A stretch of 64,000 bases of DNA, taken from positions 71,647 through 135,646 of the forward strand of contig JBBRTU010000003.1 in assembly GCA_038244115.1 (NCBI GenBank). Reading direction: 5' to 3'. This DNA comes from Burkholderiales bacterium (GTDB lineage Bacteria; Pseudomonadota; Gammaproteobacteria; Burkholderiales; JBBRTU01). Position 1 is the first letter of the stretch. Every line of letters begins with the position of its first letter. Positions 1 through 10,406 of the stretch are shown here, piece by piece. The notes under the pieces were generated by a model, which saw only the letters and a program-made list of their open reading frames with translations, was not told the DNA's origin and searched no databases. The translations under genes and the position numbers were made by a program.

Positions 1-3000
1 TGCCGGGATGGCCATGGCAAACCCAACCAATAACAACGACGCGAATAGTAACCAGGCTATTACTCAAGACGCGACGGCGACTTCAACCCAAGGTGGAACC
101 ACTAGCCCGCAGGCGAACGAAAATTCCACCGCCACGCAGAACAACAACTCTAATCAGGGCAACAACAGCAGTACCAATGCCGCTGATCAGGGCAACAACA
201 AGAGCACCAACAACGCTGATCAGAACAACAACAAGAGTACCAACAACAACTCTGACCAGGGCAACAACAAGAGTACCAATAATGCTGATCAGAACAACAA
301 CAAGAGCACCAACAACAACTCTGATCAGGGCAACAACAAGAGTACCAACACGGACAACTCTGATCAGGGCAACAACAAGAGCACCAACTCTGACCAGAAC
401 AACAACAAGAGCAGCGGCAACAACCGGGACAACAGCGGCGATGCCACGGCTAGTGCCTTTGGCGCGTCTGCCAATAACTCTTCCACTGCCTCTGTCTCGC
501 AGGACTCCCACAACTCCACCATTAACGCAACCACCAATCTGCTTGGAGAGGTTCACGGCGGCGCAGTGGATCACATCGGCAACGTTGGCGGCAATGGCGC
601 CAACGCAGGCGCCGGTGGCATAGGTGGCAGCAGCGGCGGTGCTACCGCAGGCGCAACCAGTGGCGGCGCAACAGCCGGCAACGGTGGCATCGGCAACGGC
701 GGCAATGGCAACGGCGGCACTGGCGGTGTTGGTGGCAACGGTGGGATTGGTGGCGCAGGCGGTAGCGGCGGTAGCGCCACTAACGGCAGTGCAACCGCAG
801 GCGCGGCAACGAATGGTAGCGCCAACAACGGCAGCAGCACTGCGGGCAATGGCTTCGGCGGTACCTCTACCTCTACTGGCGGCCAAAGTACCACCGGAAT
901 GGGCGGCACTGGAAATAATGGTTCTGCATCCAGTGGCGCCAGCGGCACAGGCGCAGGTGGCGGCACGACTGGAACGGCCAGCAGCGGTGGCAGCACCGGC
1001 GGCTCCAATGGTGATGTAAGCGGCTCGACCGCCAGCGGTAGCAGCAGCACGGGTGCAGGCGGCGGCGCAACAGCAGCTGACACCAACGGCGGCAATACCA
1101 GCGGCGCAGGCGGCGGCAATAACGGAACAGCCAGCAGCGGCGCCAGCGGTACCGGCGCAGGCGGCAACAATGGCGGAACAGCCAGCAGCGGCAGTGGTGG
1201 CGCAGGCACAGGCGGCGGCGCGACCGGAACAGCCAGCAGCGGTGCCAGCGGTACCGGCGCAGGCGGCGGCAATGGCGGAACAGCCAGCAGCGGTGCCAGC
1301 GGTACTGGTTCAGGCGGCGGTGCAACCAATACAGCCGGCACCGGATCAGGCGGTGGCATGACCAGCGCCTCCACCAGCGGCGGCAGCGGCACCGGCAACG
1401 GCGGCGGCGCAACCAATACAGCCGGCACGGGTGCAGGTGGTGGCACGACAGGCACGGCAGGTACGGGCAGCAGCGGCACCGGTAACGGCGGTGGTTCAAC
1501 CGCATCAGCCGGCACGGGCAGCACGGGCAGCACCGGTGGCGGCGCCACTGGCACTTCGTCCGGCGGACCTAGCACGGGTGGCGGCATGACCAGCGCTTCC
1601 ACCAGCGGCGGTAGCGGCAGCGGCAGCGGCGGCGGTGCCACCGGAACATCAGGCACAGGTAGCAGCGGCACTGGCAATGGCGGTGGCACGACGTCATCCG
1701 CCGGCACTGGCAGCAGTGGCAGCACCGGCGGCGGCGCGGCCGGCACGGTATCAAGCGGTTCAAGCACCGGCGGCGGCTCAACCGGCACAGCCGGCACTGG
1801 CAGCAGCGGCACTGGCGCAGGCGGCGGTTCTACCGCATCAGCCGGCACGGGCAGCAGCGGCAGCACTGGCGGCGGCTCAACCGGCACCTCAGGTACCGGC
1901 CCGAGCACCGGTGGCGGCACTACGGCCTCGGCCGGTAGTGGCACCAGCGGCACAGGCGCAGGTGGTGGTGCAAGTTCTAGCGGCGGCACGCAAGCTGCCA
2001 ATTCCAGCACGACTCCCTCAGGCGGATCTGCCTCGGGCGCCAATGGCGGCAATGCTGTACCGCCCGCACCTGGCGGTAATGGTGGAAACAATAACGCCAA
2101 TATGGGTAACGTAGCTGGCGGCGCATCTAGCGGCACAGGCGGCAACGGCGGCGGCTCTACCGCCGGCACCAGCGGCGGCGCAACATCAGGCACCGCTTCC
2201 GGTACCGGCACAGGTGGCGCAGGCAGCAGTGGCGGCGCTAGCAACACAGCCAGCGCAGGCGCGGGCGGCACCACCACTAGCGGCGGCGCTACCGGCACCG
2301 GCACTGGCGGCGGCAGCGGCACTGCTGCCACCGGTCAGGCATCGACTACGCCTACCGGCGGTGCAGGCAGCAGCACAGGCTCTACCACCAATACCGCAGC
2401 AGGTAATGGCGGCGCGGCCACCACCGGCGGAGCCAGCGGCACCGGCACCGGCGGAGCTAGCGGTACGGCATCAACCGGCCAGGCATCCAATACGCCTACC
2501 GGCGGAACCAGCGGTACTGCTTCAACCGGCACCTCGGCCAGCACTGGAACTGGCGGCACGGGCGGCAGCACAGGCTCTACCACCCTTACAGCAGCAGGTA
2601 ATGGCGGCACTTCAACAAGCGGTGGTGCATCAGGCACTGGAACCGGTGGAGCTAGCGGTAGCGCTGGAACCGGCACTGCTTCTGCAAGCGGTACAGGTGG
2701 CGCCAGCGGTGGCGCAACTGGAACCGGCATGGGTGGAGCTAGCGGTAGCGCTGCAACAGGCACCGCTTCTGCAACCGGTACAGCTGGAGCCAGCGGCGGC
2801 GCAACTGGAACCGGTACGGGTGGAGCTAGCGGTAGCGCTGCAACAGGCACTGCTTCCAACACCGGTACGGGTGGAGCCAGCGGCGGCGCTTCGAGCGGCA
2901 CTGCATCTGCCACACCTACGGGTGGAGCGGGCAGCGGCGCTGCGTCAGGCACTGCTTCCAATACCGGCACAGGTGGTGCTAGCGGCGGCGCTTCGACAGG

Positions 3001-3682
3001 CACCGCTTCCAACACCGGCACCGGTGGAGCCAGCGGTGGAGCAAGCAGCGGTACCTCCTCGGCAGCAGCAGCAGGCGGTCATAGTGGCGCAGCAGGAACC
3101 GGTACAGCATCAACCACCGGAACGGGTGGCACGGGCGGTGCAGCAGCAACCGGCACTGCTTCTGCTAACGGCACGGGTGGCAGCAGCGGTTCTGCATCGA
3201 CCGGTACTGCTTCCTCAAGTGGAACCGGTGGTGCTAGCGGCAGCGCCACCAGCACTTCCACGGCAAATGCTACGGGTGGTAGCGGCGGCAGCTCGACAAA
3301 CGGCAGCGCAACCAACGGCGGCTCTTCCACAACTGCTTCCAATGGTAGCGCGACAGCCGGTCATGGTGCAGTCGGTGCCGGCGGCGGTAGCGGCGGCACG
3401 GGTGGCCAGGGCGCAGGCGGCAGCGGCGGCACAGGTAATGGCGGCATGGGCGGAAGCGCTGCCACCGGCCAAGCCCTCGCATCTGCCACAACTGGCAACG
3501 GTGCTATGGGTGGTGCGGGCGGCAATGCCAACGGTGGTGATGCTGGCACTTACAATGCCAGCAACACCATCCAAAGCGGCTTCTCCAACGCTGCTGGTAT
3601 CTCAGTTGTAAGCCAGAACACCGGCGCGAACGCTCTGACTCAACAGGGTGTAACCGTGCAGGCTAATTTGGCTATCCATTAA
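1..3682 (+). CDS. Giant Gly/Ser/Thr/Ala-rich secreted Fap-like (FapC-type) fibre/amyloid subunit, 5'-truncated by the window edge
   Basis: The frame is open from base 2 (A-G-M-A-M-A|N-P-T, which reads like the end of a signal peptide). The C-terminus NASNTIQSGFSNAAGISVVSQNTGANALTQQGVTVQANL resembles the Fap amyloid repeat. A C39 peptidase and a FapF-like barrel lie nearby. Confidence 0.75.
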   Translation, partial: AGMAMANPTNNNDANSNQAITQDATATSTQGGTTSPQANENSTATQNNNSNQGNNSSTNAADQGNNKSTNNADQNNNKSTNNNSDQGNNKSTNNADQNNNKSTNNNSDQGNNKSTNTDNSDQGNNKSTNSDQNNNKSSGNNRDNSGDATASAFGASANNSSTASVSQDSHNSTINATTNLLGEVHGGAVDHIGNVGGNGANAGAGGIGGSSGGATAGATSGGATAGNGGIGNGGNGNGGTGGVGGNGGIGGAGGSGGSATNGSATAGAATNGSANNGSSTAGNGFGGTSTSTGGQSTTGMGGTGNNGSASSGASGTGAGGGTTGTASSGGSTGGSNGDVSGSTASGSSSTGAGGGATAADTNGGNTSGAGGGNNGTASSGASGTGAGGNNGGTASSGSGGAGTGGGATGTASSGASGTGAGGGNGGTASSGASGTGSGGGATNTAGTGSGGGMTSASTSGGSGTGNGGGATNTAGTGAGGGTTGTAGTGSSGTGNGGGSTASAGTGSTGSTGGGATGTSSGGPSTGGGMTSASTSGGSGSGSGGGATGTSGTGSSGTGNGGGTTSSAGTGSSGSTGGGAAGTVSSGSSTGGGSTGTAGTGSSGTGAGGGSTASAGTGSSGSTGGGSTGTSGTGPSTGGGTTASAGSGTSGTGAGGGASSSGGTQAANSSTTPSGGSASGANGGNAVPPAPGGNGGNNNANMGNVAGGASSGTGGNGGGSTAGTSGGATSGTASGTGTGGAGSSGGASNTASAGAGGTTTSGGATGTGTGGGSGTAATGQASTTPTGGAGSSTGSTTNTAAGNGGAATTGGASGTGTGGASGTASTGQASNTPTGGTSGTASTGTSASTGTGGTGGSTGSTTLTAAGNGGTSTSGGASGTGTGGASGSAGTGTASASGTGGASGGATGTGMGGASGSAATGTASATGTAGASGGATGTGTGGASGSAATGTASNTGTGGASGGASSGTASATPTGGAGSGAASGTASNTGTGGASGGASTGTASNTGTGGASGGASSGTSSAAAAGGHSGAAGTGTASTTGTGGTGGAAATGTASANGTGGSSGSASTGTASSSGTGGASGSATSTSTANATGGSGGSSTNGSATNGGSSTTASNGSATAGHGAVGAGGGSGGTGGQGAGGSGGTGNGGMGGSAATGQALASATTGNGAMGGAGGNANGGDAGTYNASNTIQSGFSNAAGISVVSQNTGANALTQQGVTVQANLAIH
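152..416 (+). repeat. Intragenic tandem repeat, ~8 units of DQ(G/N)NNKSTN(N)x (30-39 bp)
   Basis: Repeated tgatcagggcaacaacaagag(c/t)accaac; includes a 69-bp higher-order duplication encoding DQGNNKSTNNADQNNNKSTNNNS x2. Confidence 0.9.
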
Positions 3683-3693
3683 GTCGAAGTAAC

Positions 3694-3727
3694 CGCCAGG
3701 GGGTGCGGATGTTCGCACCTCTTGGCG
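3694..3727 (+). promoter_or_regulatory. Intergenic stem-loop after the giant subunit gene (mRNA stabiliser or weak terminator)
   Basis: cgccagggggtgcgga-tg-ttcgcacctcttggcg pairs over 16 bp with G-U wobbles; there is no clean U-tract. Confidence 0.55.
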
Positions 3728-3753
3728 TCTTCTCGGACGAGAGGAATATAGCC

Positions 3754-4107
3754 ATGAAAAAATTTACAACCATACCTATTCTAGGCGGACTGGTTCTATT
3801 GATGAACCTCCCTTTTTCCCCCCAAGCGTGGGGCGATGATTCAACCATGTCGAATGAAAGCGCATTTGGTGCGGCCATTTCAGACTCAGATCTTGGAACA
3901 CAACGCGGTGGCGATGTCCGCGTGACCAACACCAACAACCTGGACGCACAGTTGCATGACAACTCTGCGACAGCAAACGTTACAGGCAGCAATTTCGTCA
4001 CAAGTTCGGCATTTTCCGGCAGCAGTGGATTTTCGACGGTTGTACAAAATTCCGGCAACAACGTGATCATCCAGAATGCGACCGTTCTGAACCTGCAACT
4101 ACAGTAA
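3754..4107 (+). CDS. Small secreted Fap-motif protein (FapB-like minor subunit/nucleator)
   Basis: RBS gagga before ATG 3754; signal peptide ending QAWG; DLGTQRGG motif; C-terminal SAFSGSSGFSTVVQNSGNNVIIQNATVLNL repeat. Confidence 0.7.
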   Translation: MKKFTTIPILGGLVLLMNLPFSPQAWGDDSTMSNESAFGAAISDSDLGTQRGGDVRVTNTNNLDAQLHDNSATANVTGSNFVTSSAFSGSSGFSTVVQNSGNNVIIQNATVLNLQLQ

Positions 4108-4115
4108 GCGCTCTC

Positions 4116-4805
4116 ATGAAAGTAGCGAGCCTCTATCTCTTTATCCTTGCCGCGCTGCTGATCGCGACCACCGCCCAGGGCGGCGAGGTCGTGCTGGCCG
4201 GCAGCGACTATGGAAATGTCTCCATCAAAGCAACCAGTCTCAAGGAAGCGCGCTTCCGCACGACCGTGCGGCAACAATTCGATTACAGCTGCGGTTCGGC
4301 GGCAACAGCCACGCTGCTTACTTACCAATATGGCCGCCCAGTCAGCGAACAGGATATCTTCCAGGAAATGTGGGATGTGGGCGACAAGGAAAAAATTCGC
4401 CTGGAAGGTTTTTCACTGCTGGATATCAAACGCTATCTGGAGAACAACGGCTACCAGGCCGACGGCTATGTAGCGCCACTGGACAAACTTGTTCAGAATG
4501 GCATCCCGGCACTCGCATTGATCAGAGACAACGGTTACAACCACTTTGTGGTAATCAAGGGGCTGAATGAGCGAGAAGTACTCGCGGGCGACCCTTCCAT
4601 CGGTTCGCGGATTATTCCGCGCGCGGATTTCGAAAAAATGTGGATTAACCGCATTCTGTTCGTCATTCATAGCGATCAGGACAGGGCGGTTTTTAATAGC
4701 CGGCACGATTGGCATGTGCGCGAAACAGCGCCACTAGGGCTCGCCATGGGTTCGAGCAGCCTAGCCAATGTCACGTTATTGCGCCCCGGCGTAAACGATT
4801 TCTGA
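4116..4805 (+). CDS. Periplasmic C39-family peptidase (FapD-like)
   Basis: Signal peptide; QQFDYSCGSAA catalytic Cys motif; YNHFVV His; GDPS Asp. Confidence 0.9.
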   Translation: MKVASLYLFILAALLIATTAQGGEVVLAGSDYGNVSIKATSLKEARFRTTVRQQFDYSCGSAATATLLTYQYGRPVSEQDIFQEMWDVGDKEKIRLEGFSLLDIKRYLENNGYQADGYVAPLDKLVQNGIPALALIRDNGYNHFVVIKGLNEREVLAGDPSIGSRIIPRADFEKMWINRILFVIHSDQDRAVFNSRHDWHVRETAPLGLAMGSSSLANVTLLRPGVNDF

Positions 4806-4812
4806 GGCTGAC

Positions 4813-5574
4813 ATGAGAACCTTACTTGGCAAAAGCATTGTGGGCATATCGGCGGCGCTGAGCGCCGTTGCAATGGCTGGTCCAGGTTCAGTTGCCGACA
4901 TTCCCGACCATGATCCTGGCAGTTTTGTTCCACTCAAAATGTTGCTGCAGCTCGGTGGCCCACCGAAGTCGGAGCTTGCTCTATCTGACAAGAACAACCT
5001 TGGCTTTGAAGACTGTCGGCGGGTAGGTGAAAATGAATTGAATGATATGCGCGGCGGGTTTCAGATCAACGTGGGTGGACTGCCAGGGCTGTTGTCAATT
5101 GGTGTCGAGAAAATGACATTTGTAAATGGGGCGCTTGTGGCAAAAACCACATTTAATCTGCTTCCGCAACTGAATGCATCCGAGATGCGTGAGGTGATTG
5201 TCAATCAGATGGTATTGCCGAGCGCTGCGGGCATCAAATCGACTATCACCCCGGCGACTGCACCTACTGCGGCGACTGCACCTACTGCGGCAGCTGCACC
5301 TACTGCGGCGGCGCCTGCATCATCGACCCCCGTGGCTCAAACACAAAATTACCAACCGATTCAGGTGATACAAATTGGGCCAGGCAATACATTCACCCTT
5401 CCCAATATGACTAACCTGAATTCCGGAATGATGGCCGTTATCCAGAACACGCTGGACAACCAGGTAATTCGAAACATGACCATCATCAACGCAACCCTGG
5501 CGACCCAGGAAATGATCCGCTCCATGGCGATCAATTCCGCCTTGAGCCGGATAGCGCCTAACTTTGGACGCTGA
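4813..5574 (+). CDS. Secreted FapE-like protein
   Basis: Signal peptide (AVAMA); ELNDMRGG motif; C-terminal IQIGPGN...VIQNTLDNQVI motif; position directly after the C39 peptidase. Confidence 0.65.
   Translation: MRTLLGKSIVGISAALSAVAMAGPGSVADIPDHDPGSFVPLKMLLQLGGPPKSELALSDKNNLGFEDCRRVGENELNDMRGGFQINVGGLPGLLSIGVEKMTFVNGALVAKTTFNLLPQLNASEMREVIVNQMVLPSAAGIKSTITPATAPTAATAPTAAAAPTAAAPASSTPVAQTQNYQPIQVIQIGPGNTFTLPNMTNLNSGMMAVIQNTLDNQVIRNMTIINATLATQEMIRSMAINSALSRIAPNFGR
5252..5310 (+). repeat. 18-bp tandem repeat x3 encoding a TAPTAA linker
   Basis: cggcgactgcacctactg x2 followed by cggcagctgcacctactg. Confidence 0.9.
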
Positions 5575-5593: not shown

Positions 5594-6856
5594 CTAGAGA
5601 TTAAAAGGCATGCGCAGCGTTAACTGCATATTAGGTGCTTCGCTGGTCACACCCACGCCGAGCGAAAGATTGACACTGGATTTGCTGTTCAGCCGGTACG
5701 AGTAGCCGACCAGCAAGCTGCCCAACTGTCTCGTCTGTGACTGTGGAGCGGCGACACCATCGATCTTATCCTTACCGACTATGCTGTGATCGTAACCCAG
5801 ACTAAATGAAGATTTCTCGTTCAAGGCCAAGCCCATTCCAAAATTGAATCCTAAGGCATCACCCGGATCAACCGATCCATAATGCTCCACGTTGCGTTTG
5901 ACATTCCAGAGATAACTCACGCTGCCAAAGAATACTGCGGGATCGGAAGGGAAAATGGCCGTGACACTGGGTTGTATCCCATAAAATCCGGAGCCGGTTG
6001 GCAGTGTTTTCGCAAGATTGGTAGTGGGATCAATTTCCACCTCGAAAGGATCTTTTCCAGTGTGCGTTTTCACCCGTAGCCCACCAATGAAGTAGGGTTG
6101 ATCGCCGCCACCTTCGTTTAACTGATAGCGCGCGGCAAATTCCACGTCGCCAAGCCCTTTACCGCTTGAATCAAAAACACTGTCCGCATATGTCGGGGTG
6201 GCCCAGGGGCGCGTAACAGTGGAGTCGCTTCGATACACATAGGGTATCTTGGCTTCCACTTCAAATCGATTCGTCACGCCATAGCGTCCGGTCAGCGCAC
6301 CGATCATGGTGCTGCGGTTGACGCTTCTGACATCGATAAGCCCAATGACAATCGCGGGAATAACGGTGAAACCGACCAATGCCACCCGGTTATTTGACGA
6401 ATATGAATATTGTACCGAAGGTTCGAGGATAAAGCTGCCGCGCGGGGTTAACACGCCCGGCTGCTCGAAAATGGGCGCTATGGCCGGCGGCTTGCTGTCT
6501 CTGGTTGGATCCGGGGCGCGGCCAACAGGTTGCCGTGCTCCCCCTTCTGTTTGGGCAACTTCAGTGCGCGCTGCGGGTTCTGTGCCACCGACCAGCCGCG
6601 CTTTGATGGTTTCAAGCTGACGCTTGGTTTCCTGCAATGCACGTTTTTGGCTTTCGAGTCGTCGAACTTCATCCTCGAGTTCCCGCTGTTGAGATGCGAG
6701 CTGCCGGCTCTGTTCGTCCAGTTGTATTTTCAAATCCTCAACCGACACTTGCGATGGCGCTGAGCTTTCGCCGGCCAGAGGAGCGCTCGCCACACCTAGC
6801 GCACATACCACACCAACCAGTGAAAACAGACCACGTTGATTAGAATTTAATAACAT
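5594..6856 (-). CDS. FapF-like outer-membrane beta-barrel exporter with N-terminal coiled coil
   Basis: Signal peptide; heptad coiled coil (LKIQLDEQSRQLASQQREL); barrel motifs GLGDVEF, TGKDPF, LPTGSGF, PSDPAVFFG; ends in MPFNL. Confidence 0.8.
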   Translation of the reverse strand: MLLNSNQRGLFSLVGVVCALGVASAPLAGESSAPSQVSVEDLKIQLDEQSRQLASQQRELEDEVRRLESQKRALQETKRQLETIKARLVGGTEPAARTEVAQTEGGARQPVGRAPDPTRDSKPPAIAPIFEQPGVLTPRGSFILEPSVQYSYSSNNRVALVGFTVIPAIVIGLIDVRSVNRSTMIGALTGRYGVTNRFEVEAKIPYVYRSDSTVTRPWATPTYADSVFDSSGKGLGDVEFAARYQLNEGGGDQPYFIGGLRVKTHTGKDPFEVEIDPTTNLAKTLPTGSGFYGIQPSVTAIFPSDPAVFFGSVSYLWNVKRNVEHYGSVDPGDALGFNFGMGLALNEKSSFSLGYDHSIVGKDKIDGVAAPQSQTRQLGSLLVGYSYRLNSKSSVNLSLGVGVTSEAPNMQLTLRMPFNL

Positions 6857-6915: not shown

Positions 6916-8295
6916 CTATAACTGGCTCTGCCCCAAGCCTTCGCTTATTCCCCTCAGGCGGCGATAAAGCGTTGCTCGTGATACGCCGAGCTGCCTGGCT
7001 GTTTCTGACACGTTATGATGATTTTTGCGCAATGTCGATCTTATCACTTCTTCTTCGGCAGAAGTTCGTGCAATGTCGAGCGTGAATGCTGACATTTGTG
7101 GAGCGCGTTTTTCCAGGCCCATATCCGCAGGCGTGATCAGTTTCTTCTCACTTAAAATGGTTGCGCGCCGAACACGATTGATTAACTCACGCACGTTGCC
7201 AGGCCAGCTATAGTTGCTCATCACACGCAGCGCTGCTTTGCTAAAGCCGCTGGCCAGTGAGCAATGCTCTTTATGAAATTTCTCGAAATAAGATTGCGCC
7301 AAAAGTTCGATGTCGCCTTCTCTCTCCTTTAAACTTGGCACATCTAGACGTAACACATTGATCCGGTAGTAGAGATCTTCACGGAATTTTCCTGATTCAA
7401 CAGCCCGTTCCAGATTGGCGTTGGTTGCCGCAACCACTCTCACGTCGACAGAGATTCGCGTGTTCGAACCGATGCGCTCAATGGTTTTTTCTTGCAAAAA
7501 ACGCAACAGATTGACCTGAATATCCAAAGACAAATCGCCGATTTCATCTAGGAAAATCGTTCCACCTACTGCCGCCTCAATACGCCCGATCTTGCGTGTG
7601 GCAGCGCCGGTAAATGCGCCTTTCTCGTAGCCGAACAACTCACTCTGGATTAATTGAGAAGGCAGTGCGCCACAATTCACCGCGACCAATGGCCCCTTGG
7701 CTTGACGCGAAAGTTGATGGAGCGCATTAGCCGCCAACTCCTTGCCTGTTCCGTTTTCACCTGTAATCAATACTGGCGCACCCGACCATGCCATTTTGCG
7801 CAGATTGCGATACAGCTCGCGCATCATCTGACTTGTGCCCAGCATGTTGAGAAATCCGGAGCTGGAGGAACTTTTTTCCAGCCGGACTTTCATTATTGCT
7901 TTGCCATACGCGTGTCCAAGTGTGGCCAGAAGCCGCTCAGGGTCAATAGGCAGGGTGTGGTAATCATGGCAAACATTTGAAATAAACTGGAGGCACTCAC
8001 GGCACCGAAGCGATGCCCGAGAAACAACAGCAACCCATTCGATCGGCGTATCAGCGGTCGCTAGCTCTTCCAAATCAGAGAAATTTACGTTACTTGCGTT
8101 GCCAAAACACGCGATCCCAATGCTGACCGCATGCTCCTCAATAAGGCGCTTTACTGATTGGGCATCTGATGCAATCAGCACCGCCCAACCGGCATCCAGA
8201 AGAATCTGAGCAGGAAAGGCTGTGTCTCGCTGATACACCACCACTTTTCGAGCGACCAATTCGTCGCCTGTTGTTAATCTTATTGGCAATGCCAT
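6916..8295 (-). CDS. Sigma54-dependent Fis-family activator with atypical VpsR-like N-terminal domain
   Basis: Walker A GENGTGKE; ELFGYEKGAFTGA; FLDEIG; WPGNVREL; C-terminal HTH; N-terminal CHDYHTLP segment typical of the VpsR type. Confidence 0.85.
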   Translation of the reverse strand: MALPIRLTTGDELVARKVVVYQRDTAFPAQILLDAGWAVLIASDAQSVKRLIEEHAVSIGIACFGNASNVNFSDLEELATADTPIEWVAVVSRASLRCRECLQFISNVCHDYHTLPIDPERLLATLGHAYGKAIMKVRLEKSSSSSGFLNMLGTSQMMRELYRNLRKMAWSGAPVLITGENGTGKELAANALHQLSRQAKGPLVAVNCGALPSQLIQSELFGYEKGAFTGAATRKIGRIEAAVGGTIFLDEIGDLSLDIQVNLLRFLQEKTIERIGSNTRISVDVRVVAATNANLERAVESGKFREDLYYRINVLRLDVPSLKEREGDIELLAQSYFEKFHKEHCSLASGFSKAALRVMSNYSWPGNVRELINRVRRATILSEKKLITPADMGLEKRAPQMSAFTLDIARTSAEEEVIRSTLRKNHHNVSETARQLGVSRATLYRRLRGISEGLGQSQL

Positions 8296-9737: not shown

Positions 9738-10406
9738 ACGGGTGTAGCAGGGGGAGCCGGTATCGCATTCGCCTTGTAAGAAGTCATCGCCAGCGTGGCT
9801 GGCTGGGCCGCTATTTCGTTTGGCGGATTCCTCAAGGTTGGTGACCGGGTTCAGCTCGGCGGCTTCAAAGGCGACGAAACTGACATTGGACTGTTACGCA
9901 GCACGCTCATGGAAACAGGCGAATGGATTCGCGGTGATTTATATAATGGCCGCGTTGTCCGGGTGGCCAACAGCTTCGTGTTCAAGGGGCCGGTTTTCAA
10001 GTATTTAGGCGATTTCCATTTTTTATGGGCCGAAGTCGTTTTACCCGTTCATTTTGGCAGCGACTATGAGCTGATGCGTAACATCCTGCTCAATGCGGCG
10101 AATGAAATTGTCGGTGGTTTTGAGGCCGAGGCAGCCATCAACTGGTGGCAGATGTTGAACAAATATCTGCTTGAAGACGCTTCGCTAAAACCTATAGTCT
10201 CCATCACTTTCAACGAGAACTGGGTGAATTTCACTCTGCGCTATGTTACGCATTACAGGCGGCGCCGAATTATGCTCGATGCGATTTCTGTTAAGGTCTT
10301 AACCGATGTCAAAAAATCCGGCGGCAAGGTTCGTATAGGTGTCGCCTCAATGGAACTAAGTCATTTCATGCCAAGCTCTCTTACCGAACCAGTCAACAAG
10401 GCATAA
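9738..10406 (+). pseudogene. MscS-family mechanosensitive channel remnant (N-terminus lost, in-frame stop)
   Basis: GVAGGAGIAFAL*EVIASVAGW: TAA at 9777-9779 sits where MscS has AFALQE. The downstream KVGDRVQLGG..GD..DIG domain is in the same frame. Confidence 0.8.

Follow-up and report, generated by a model that had tools for sequence, protein, structure and literature searches.

At the left end of the 64,000 bp window analysed here (the whole stretch from position 71,647 to 135,646 of contig JBBRTU010000003.1 in the Burkholderiales bacterium assembly GCA_038244115.1, whose coordinates are used throughout unless a locus is named) lies an operon encoding a very large glycine-rich protein, a small secreted paralog, a C39-family peptidase and a 253 amino acid (aa) secreted protein, in that order, followed by a convergent outer membrane barrel gene (Table 1). 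The open reading frame (ORF) of the big protein lacks its 5′ end in the window; its true ATG is 46 nucleotides (nt) upstream of window position 1, at position 9954 of locus L005, and the full product is 1242 aa long, with a signal peptide-like N-terminus, MNKTILSTAIAMAFSAAGMAMA, as read from the translation. The protein has no family match in Pfam or NCBIfam, and in the Atlas its relatives are annotated only as 'hypothetical protein' and fall in unnamed clusters. It contains a 987 aa glycine-rich tract, the two halves of which, here called arms, match each other in length in relatives that span an eight-fold range of tract size.

Table 1. Features of the big protein, its glycine-rich tract and the neighbouring genes.
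Feature	Coordinates	Strand	Basis or remark
Big-protein coding sequence, 5′-truncated by the window	1..3682	+	Stop codon at 3680-3682
Asn-rich N-terminal repeats, DQGNNKSTNN-type, 11/12 aa	153..413	+	Tandem Repeats Finder, periods 33/36/69 nt
Left conserved flank, ~40 aa, ends ...VDHIGN (domain half 1)	464..583	+	Left-flank hidden Markov model
Left-arm base: GGxG runs, then NGSAT/SSTAG block (773-848)	584..955	+	Motif scan
Left-arm array, 17-aa units (GGG-x-T-x-T-A...)	956..1960	+	Period 17, z 7.4
Central linker/tip, non-repetitive, with the sole PPAP (2060-2071)	1961..2212	+	Motif scan and segmentation
Right-arm array, 17-aa units (GGASG-SAATG-TASNTGT type)	2213..3274	+	Period 17, z 9.6
Right-arm base: NGSAT block (3290-3361), then GGxG runs	3275..3535	+	Motif scan
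Right conserved flank, C-terminal 48 aa (...AGTYNASNTIQSGFSNAAGISVVSQNTGANALTQQGVTVQANLAIH) (domain half 2)	3536..3679	+	C-terminal hidden Markov model
Small secreted paralog, 118 aa, conserved domain without insert	3751..4107	+	Translation
C39-family peptidase, FapD/FilB-like	4116..4805	+	Pfam PF03412, 4.3e-20
253-aa secreted protein, related C-terminal motif (...VIQNTLDNQVIRNMTIINATL...)	4813..5574	+	Translation
FapF-like outer membrane barrel, N-terminal coiled coil, convergent to the operon	5594..6856	-	FapF, FilC, PF13557
Sigma-54 enhancer-binding protein, VpsR-type N-terminal domain	6916..8295	-	PF00158 2.9e-69, PF20161 9.2e-20

Mirror order of the glycine-rich tract

The tract spans positions 587–3547 of the frame 2 ORF and includes 375 Gly, 183 Thr, 176 Ser, 160 Ala, 54 Asn and 9 Pro residues, with G, T, S and A together making up 91% of the total. 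A first-pass annotation, made from the sequence alone, had described it as ordered symmetrically about its midpoint, and this observation is confirmed. First, the midpoint does fall in the only PPAP segment, leaving 491 aa to the left and 492 aa to the right. Second, the motifs that it had listed are all present, with SATNG at 773 and 3305, SSTAG at 833, and AGAGG, AGNGG and AGNGG at 2255, 2399 and 2594 (spacings of 144 and 195 nt); the GPSTGGG, GSSTGGG and GPSTGGG units start at 1565, 1757 and 1898 (spacings of 192 and 141 nt), 3 nt before the positions originally given. The GG[IMNV]G runs are found at both extreme ends (587–740 and 3440) as described, yet further copies are present at 1265, 2072 and 2138. 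Third, both arms are built of 17 aa units with 12, 14 and 16 aa variants, and, as in the first description, the unit sequence differs between them.

The variant units are arranged in mirror order. In the left array, 12 aa units start at 1313 and 1400 and 14 aa units at 1535, 1727 and 1868; in the right array, 14 aa units start at 2264, 2408 and 2603 and 12 aa units at 2696 and 2783. The 12 aa units are 216 and 245 aa from PPAP on each side, and the 14 aa units are 59, 106 and 170 aa from it on the left and 73, 121 and 186 aa on the right. When unit order was permuted 20,000 times within the arms, the mirror statistic of 90 compared with a null of 612 ± 242 (P ~1e-4, a significance that is overstated because the permutation null ignores block duplication), whereas a comparison in direct order, without mirroring, yielded 965 (P 0.92). 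Where precisely the right 12 aa units fall in the mirror depends on an 87 nt repeat array considered below. The higher-order repeat blocks measure 47-64-47 aa in the left arm and 48-65-48 aa in the right, a three-block arrangement that is symmetric in both directions, and the evidence from this single protein is therefore moderate.

Two other kinds of symmetry were rejected. A residue palindrome is not seen, mirror identity being at background level, and neither is a DNA palindrome, inverted repeats being no longer than 30 nt, 70–88% complementary and scattered. Only the lengths and the order of the blocks are therefore symmetric and, as had been claimed, this is a property of the protein rather than of the DNA.

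Arms are kept equal in length across relatives

The C39 peptidase served as the entry point to the relatives and revealed syntenic operons in genomes within the same order. A four-protein C39 alignment identified 583 related stretches in the genome collection, from which the best 80 loci were kept, and 83 loci were examined. Two hidden Markov models (HMMs), one for the C-terminal motif and one, built from 57 homologs, for the left flank, were run with --max; the default bias filter lost all of the glycine-rich proteins. The C-terminal HMM matched 139 ORFs in the 83 loci, where 71 ORFs encode glycine-rich first-gene products, and most of the best 80 loci carry one. Tract ends were set by the HMMs in 64 of the 71, or 63 once a tract with a run of N was dropped, and the proline analysis used 49 clusters at 80% identity. 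In addition, 200 genomes belonging to the family of the genome with Pseudoxanthomonas locus L054 were searched; the protein was found in 31 of them, and 30 tracts were added. The protein family is widespread, with carriers that include Thiobacillus, Ralstonia, Lysobacter, Pseudoxanthomonas, Aromatoleum, Massilia and others, and the tracts of about 90 homologs range from 119 to 984 aa, with the protein described here being the longest.

These proteins have a common plan. A signal peptide and a polar N/D/S/T-rich region precede the left flank (...L.G.V..N.V..IGN), which is followed by GGxG runs and an NGSAT-type block; then come a variable arm, the tip and a second variable arm; and on the C-terminal side an NGSAT-type block, GGxG runs and the right flank (AG.F.MSN...QSAAGI.V..QN.G.....QQ..VQANL). 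The SATNG blocks and GGxG runs are thus not peculiar to this protein, since they are conserved family-wide. The motif of the C-terminal flank also closes both of the neighbouring secreted proteins, and the small paralog is itself conserved beside the C39 gene (54 ORFs in the examined loci). In the small paralog and in the first genes of related operons that have no tract (L017 of G031, L080 and L039), nothing separates the two flanks; the tract is therefore inserted in a single loop of a small conserved domain, and its two ends must sit side by side. The last 60 residues gave no match at E ≤ 1e-3 among proteins of 683–2174 aa, a threshold that is probably too strict for a 60 aa query. The Asn-rich repeats of the protein in the window have a 69 nt higher-order period with 87% matches (Tandem Repeats Finder), and many homologs have comparable N/D/S/T-rich repeats ahead of the conserved domain.

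Several lines of evidence show that the two arms change length together. First, prolines are concentrated at the centre: 44 of 96 lie at 0.46–0.54 of tract length, compared with 7.7 expected, and 18 of 30 proline-bearing clusters have a proline within 0.03 of the midpoint. When tracts are divided at the densest proline cluster the arms are 492/488, 289/295, 214/208, 204/197, 195/191, 169/164, 160/163 (two proteins), 157/154, 84/97 and 69/69 aa, with an outlier of 58/208. Second, the family reached from L054 mostly lacks proline, and there an R[ED]RG tip motif marks the midpoint; its arms are equal within 3 aa in all 26 distinct tracts (rows read by eye), with values of 57/58, 65/66, 70/71, 71/72, 71/73, 74/76, 75/76, 78/80, 79/81, 89/92, 134/134, 160/160 and 162/161 aa. 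Third, in three of six close pairs the length differences come from paired indels that are equal in size and sit at mirror positions, as confirmed with exact shared blocks rather than gapped alignment. Ralstonia L075 and L060 differ by 7 aa at 0.18 and 7 aa at 0.82 of the tract; L091 and L054 by one pair of 5 aa indels at 0.09 and 0.90 and a second pair of 21 aa each at 0.30 and about 0.65; and L101 is longer than L064 by 28 and 27 aa, which include 13 aa near each end together with 14 aa at 0.33 and 14 aa at 0.68. Fourth, net gains in the outer left and outer right of the tract are correlated (r = 0.86, 14 pairs). Fifth, the distances of the NGSAT blocks from the left and right ends track one another (45/39, 50/44, 54/46, 55/49, 58/52 and, in this protein, 66/60), differing by 6–8 aa in nearly all of 28 homologs (r = 0.81). 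Finally, the repeat period is shared between arms, being 17/17 here and 22/22, 20/20, 18/18, 11/11 and 18/19 in other lineages; the periods match within 1 aa in 8 of 12 clearly periodic tracts, a number reached in none of 20,000 right-arm shuffles. The arm lengths thus covary and the turn remains central in homologs of different length, the check that the first-pass annotation had set for its proposal that the arms have expanded together.

Some measures were discarded. Mapping of the midpoint from shorter to longer tracts (r = 0.36) was dominated by the placement of central insertions, and was replaced by net gains in the outer thirds and anchoring on exact blocks. A one-sided 41 aa indel between L086 and L085 was set aside because it falls at X residues (a run of N) in L086, an assembly gap. 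A change-point in composition lies at 0.45–0.55 in 40 of 64 tracts (k = 3), but its null is uncalibrated and it is not used as evidence.

Other observations on the relatives may be recorded here. Some genomes have two glycine-rich genes of the family, in tandem in L035 (6723–9515) and L071 (936–5455) and about 4.6 kb apart in L104 (8052–9563 and 14143–16632); in L071 both tracts are exactly 536 aa long despite different sequences. The most similar C-terminus is that of L027 (6731–9531), on a 665 kb contig of a metagenome-assembled gammaproteobacterial genome, where the glycine-rich gene is spread over at least two frames, probably through frameshift errors in the repeats; its arms have units of about 17–18 aa of the NGDSTSGNGGDTSGTAS and NGPADASGGTGGASGTAS types, and it was not used in the comparisons. 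In the L054 lineage (L105–L136, L049–L101) the tip is a charged motif, ..G-R-V-R-E-R-G-A-G-D.., and the arms differ in both charge and sequence, the left being Asp/Gly-rich and the right Thr/Ser/Gly-rich.

A putative two-stranded stalk and its alternatives

We know of no mutational process that yields equal, non-homologous insertions at two mirror sites hundreds of codons apart, and selection for the register of two interacting strands is therefore the simplest explanation of the covariation. The arms would then touch each other, either within one chain or between neighbouring subunits. The host domain holds the two ends of the insert together and the tip is short, so the geometry that follows most naturally is one in which the chain folds back antiparallel. 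We propose that the loop insert probably folds back at its short tip, PPAP in this protein, so that its N- and C-terminal halves run antiparallel and in register as a two-stranded stalk, much as the first-pass annotation had envisaged; the length of the stalk would be set by the number of matched repeat units on both arms. The tract is a very large insertion in one loop of a small domain, of which about 40 aa lie on its N-terminal side and 48 aa on its C-terminal side, and this host domain belongs to the first substrate of a Fap/Fil-like outer membrane export operon. The protein would presumably be exported unfolded through the FapF-like barrel and, once outside, may build or decorate an extracellular fibre or matrix from which the hairpin would extend as a length-tunable projection.

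A number of observations weigh against this proposal. In the protein itself, the 14 aa units are mirrored only to within about 15 aa, the sequence is of low complexity, and residue identity along the anti-diagonal through PPAP, a further check that had been suggested, is 0.253, which does not rise above background (0.239 over all centres, standard deviation 0.028). Among the relatives, between the two L035 paralogs there is a difference of about 23 aa in the left arm and of 10 aa in the centre, with none in the right arm; the L104 protein with a 277 aa tract has proline pairs at 0.21–0.25 and 0.44–0.46; 12 of the 30 proline-bearing clusters have no proline within 0.03 of the midpoint; the top period differs between the arms in 4 of the 12 clearly periodic tracts; and left and right gains agree only roughly at lower identity. 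The P values also overstate the case, because the relatives are not independent of one another. Finally, a contig from sequencing run X3 (depth 3.7) joins 2644 to 2732, skipping one 87 nt (29 aa) unit of the right arm, and a left-arm piece from the same run has no matching gap; the skip is either a repeat collapse or a real variant of one arm.

The interaction of the arms might take other forms. Each arm could be a separate repeat stack (for example a β-solenoid with one 17 aa unit per rung), the two being tied at base and tip, or the left arm of one subunit could pair with the right arm of its neighbour in a fibre, in either case with no intramolecular hairpin matched residue by residue. The shared period and the equal arm lengths would fit such arrangements as well, and a compact rod of about 14 nm (29 rungs of 0.48 nm, an estimate from general knowledge) is physically likelier than a ribbon of 490 pairs. 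However, small paired indels of 5+5, 7+7, 13+13 and 14+14 aa are not whole units, and both these and the exact tracking of the basal offsets are expected for residue-level register but not required by independent stacks; residue-level register is therefore favoured, and we regard the stacked or inter-subunit forms as unlikely, although pairing within a chain and pairing between chains would leave the same traces in these data. It seems more doubtful that the arms never interact, with the tract acting as a disordered, hydrated, low-complexity spacer in which symmetry is inherited or accidental. The extreme composition and the failure of AlphaFold2 to return a confident structure would suit such a spacer, as would the precedent of the FapC linkers, described as highly variable and exposed in PMC3792158. 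Nonetheless, a spacer gives no reason for halves that are equal within 3 aa over 13 lengths, or from 69 to 492 aa, nor for indels of equal size in mirror pairs or a single period in both arms, and we consider this explanation improbable.

It is very improbable that the repeat tract has been mis-joined and that its equal arms are an accident of assembly. The genome is a 121-contig metagenome assembly for which the best-matching sequencing run, and possible source, is a sediment metagenome. The junction within the 87 nt repeat array (2645–2889) is unbridged in two samples, X2 and X4, and the copy number of the array is the least certain part of the assembly, with the X3 contig skipping one unit. 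Against this, contigs from X2, an independent sample, are colinear across the tip (689–2647) and over 2751–3700 without indels, differing by about 2.3% and 4.6% respectively. Equal arms are also present in complete isolate genomes, such as that of Ralstonia sp. R-29 (L044), and an error of one 29 aa unit would shift the arm ratio by no more than 3%. Contigs from X2–X4 show other joints inside the tract too, such as one in which 34 other letters link 1274 to 1621; these could reflect strain variants, repeat collapses or cross-matches to the repeats of other organisms.

The first-pass annotation had gone further and proposed a polyglycine II or β ribbon projecting as a bristle from an amyloid core. 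This finds no structural support in two AlphaFold2 runs, both of low confidence. The 336 aa domain of Ralstonia L044 (48-row alignment) gave a mean predicted local distance difference test score (pLDDT) of 39.9 and a predicted template modelling score of 0.19 with no secondary structure, and the 92 aa insert-free domain of the small protein (56 rows) gave a pLDDT of 58.1 with no strands. A complex prediction with the two halves of the L044 domain scored 0.09 (mark 0.32) and counts neither way.

Antiparallel coiled-coil arms in SMC and Rad50 proteins and the helical hairpin of colicin Ia are precedents for distant segments that pair into a long stalk and covary in length. The proposed hairpin resembles them in that two distant segments of the chain would run antiparallel after folding back at a tip or hinge and are matched in length. 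However, theirs are α-helical heptad repeats with functional domains at both ends, whereas the arms here are 38% glycine without heptads, have lineage-specific periods of 11–24 aa and are joined by a tip of a few residues. Polyglycine II proteins (the snow-flea antifreeze protein and gp38 of phage S16) and the mycobacterial PE_PGRS proteins share the high glycine content and have short glycine-rich segments packed antiparallel, but they are made of GxxGxx or GGx triplets in short, turn-linked segments of about 10 residues; the tract described here would have one global fold-back, and the peaks of its glycine spectrum at 4.2 and 2.8 residues are harmonics of 17, with no clean period of 3. Specifically, the Fourier peaks of the glycine indicator are at 4.2, 2.4 and 15.9 residues in the left arm and 2.8, 4.2 and 17.1 in the right. 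Lag 3 is among the top three autocorrelation lags in the left arm of six homologs (L019, the second genes of L071 and L104, L095, L028 and L036), and in the right arm of two of these.

We tentatively suggest that this may be a new architecture, in which one non-helical, glycine-rich hairpin of two strands, each arm being as long as about 490 residues, would emerge from a loop of a small extracellular polymerising domain and change length by compensatory indels. If so, hairpin length would evolve in a manner similar to the compensatory base changes of RNA stems, and the hairpins, by our estimate tens of nm long, or as much as about 150 nm at full extension, would stand on Fap-like fibres as blades or bristles of tunable length and could stack from subunit to subunit into silk-like sheets. 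Pairing of the arms would show how a rod of adjustable length can be made from a protein sequence almost free of side chains, and would be a rare case of a protein structure that can be read from indel covariation alone; it might also be a template for designed silk-like or brush-like materials. In the portions of the literature that were available, without supplements, we found no description of this family or of length-matched glycine-rich arms. Several carriers are in culture, including Lysobacter soli KCTC 22011, Pseudoxanthomonas dokdonensis DSM 21858 and Thiobacillus denitrificans RG, and the hairpin idea is therefore directly testable.

The export operon and its regulation

The fibre subunit was originally labelled Fap-like, and this is apt for the export genes but not for the subunit itself. 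The operon resembles the Fap system of Pseudomonas in combining a secreted repeat protein and a small paralog with a C39 peptidase and a barrel that begins with a coiled coil. The peptidase matches the NCBIfam FapD model with 125.5 bits (1.9e-36, cut-off 330) and the barrel matches FapF with 157.5 bits (4.6e-46, cut-off 700; model positions 28–418 of 420 aligned), both scores falling well short of the equivalog cut-offs. The barrel gene here is convergent, and the subunit combines one split domain and a single giant symmetric insert, in contrast to the three repeats and two linkers of FapC, the major Fap subunit. The FapB, FapC and FapE models (NF058557, NF058558 and NF058559) have no match at E ≤ 0.1 to the big, small or 253 aa proteins, nor at E ≤ 0.01 to the conserved domain here or in homologs L019 and L044. 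In a canonical Fap locus of a relative, used as a control (L024), the same models returned 8e-27, 3e-30 and 6e-20 respectively. The HMMER bias filter may penalise glycine-rich proteins; the two neighbours that are not glycine-rich fail these models too.

No FapA-like gene was identified in the operon and the order fapABCDEF is not found, although PMC3792158 reports that in some taxa fapA has been lost and fapF separated. That source also attributes variation in FapC size mainly to its linkers. There is also a likeness to the Fil system, a putative pilus of Acinetobacter, with the FilB model matching the C39 peptidase (114.5 bits, cut-off 475, 5.5e-33) and FilC the barrel (68.5 bits, cut-off 630, 6.3e-19); both scores are under their cut-offs, and the comparison covers FilB and FilC only. 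The accessible portion of the Fil literature yielded no functional account beyond FilF as a vaccine candidate. Because the FapD and FapF matches are below cut-off and the substrates go unmatched by models that recognise canonical Fap proteins, the operon is, as judged by sequence, a sister system with a Fap export chassis and not a Fap operon. By analogy with Fap, as set out in PMC3792158, its substrates would pass through the outer membrane in an unfolded state and assemble extracellularly. The product could be an undescribed matrix component of environmental, plant- or host-associated bacteria, since the export system is related to the Fap functional amyloid machinery that shapes biofilms. 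The 253 aa protein has no family match in Pfam or NCBIfam.

A predicted sigma-54-type −24/−12 site, TGGCACGAATCATGC (TGGCAC-N5-ATGC), is located at L005 9863–9877, 77–91 nt upstream of the ATG and 137 to 123 nt before window position 1, with one mismatch to TGGCAC-N5-TTGC. At two mismatches the pattern has 52 matches in the locus where 30 are expected, and the site alone is therefore weak evidence; together with the VpsR-like activator it points to a putative matrix-type regulation. The gene upstream (L005 7834–9507) encodes a 557 aa membrane protein with the letters GGEEF, which we take to be the signature of diguanylate cyclases. The remainder of the window (10753–61836) looks ordinary, and contains genes for a CLC channel, a Na/H exchanger, an RND efflux pump with an HlyD-type partner, a TonB-dependent receptor, an ABC exporter, a GAF histidine kinase with a sigma-54 response regulator, and a polysaccharide biosynthesis protein (PF02719, Polysacc_synt_2).

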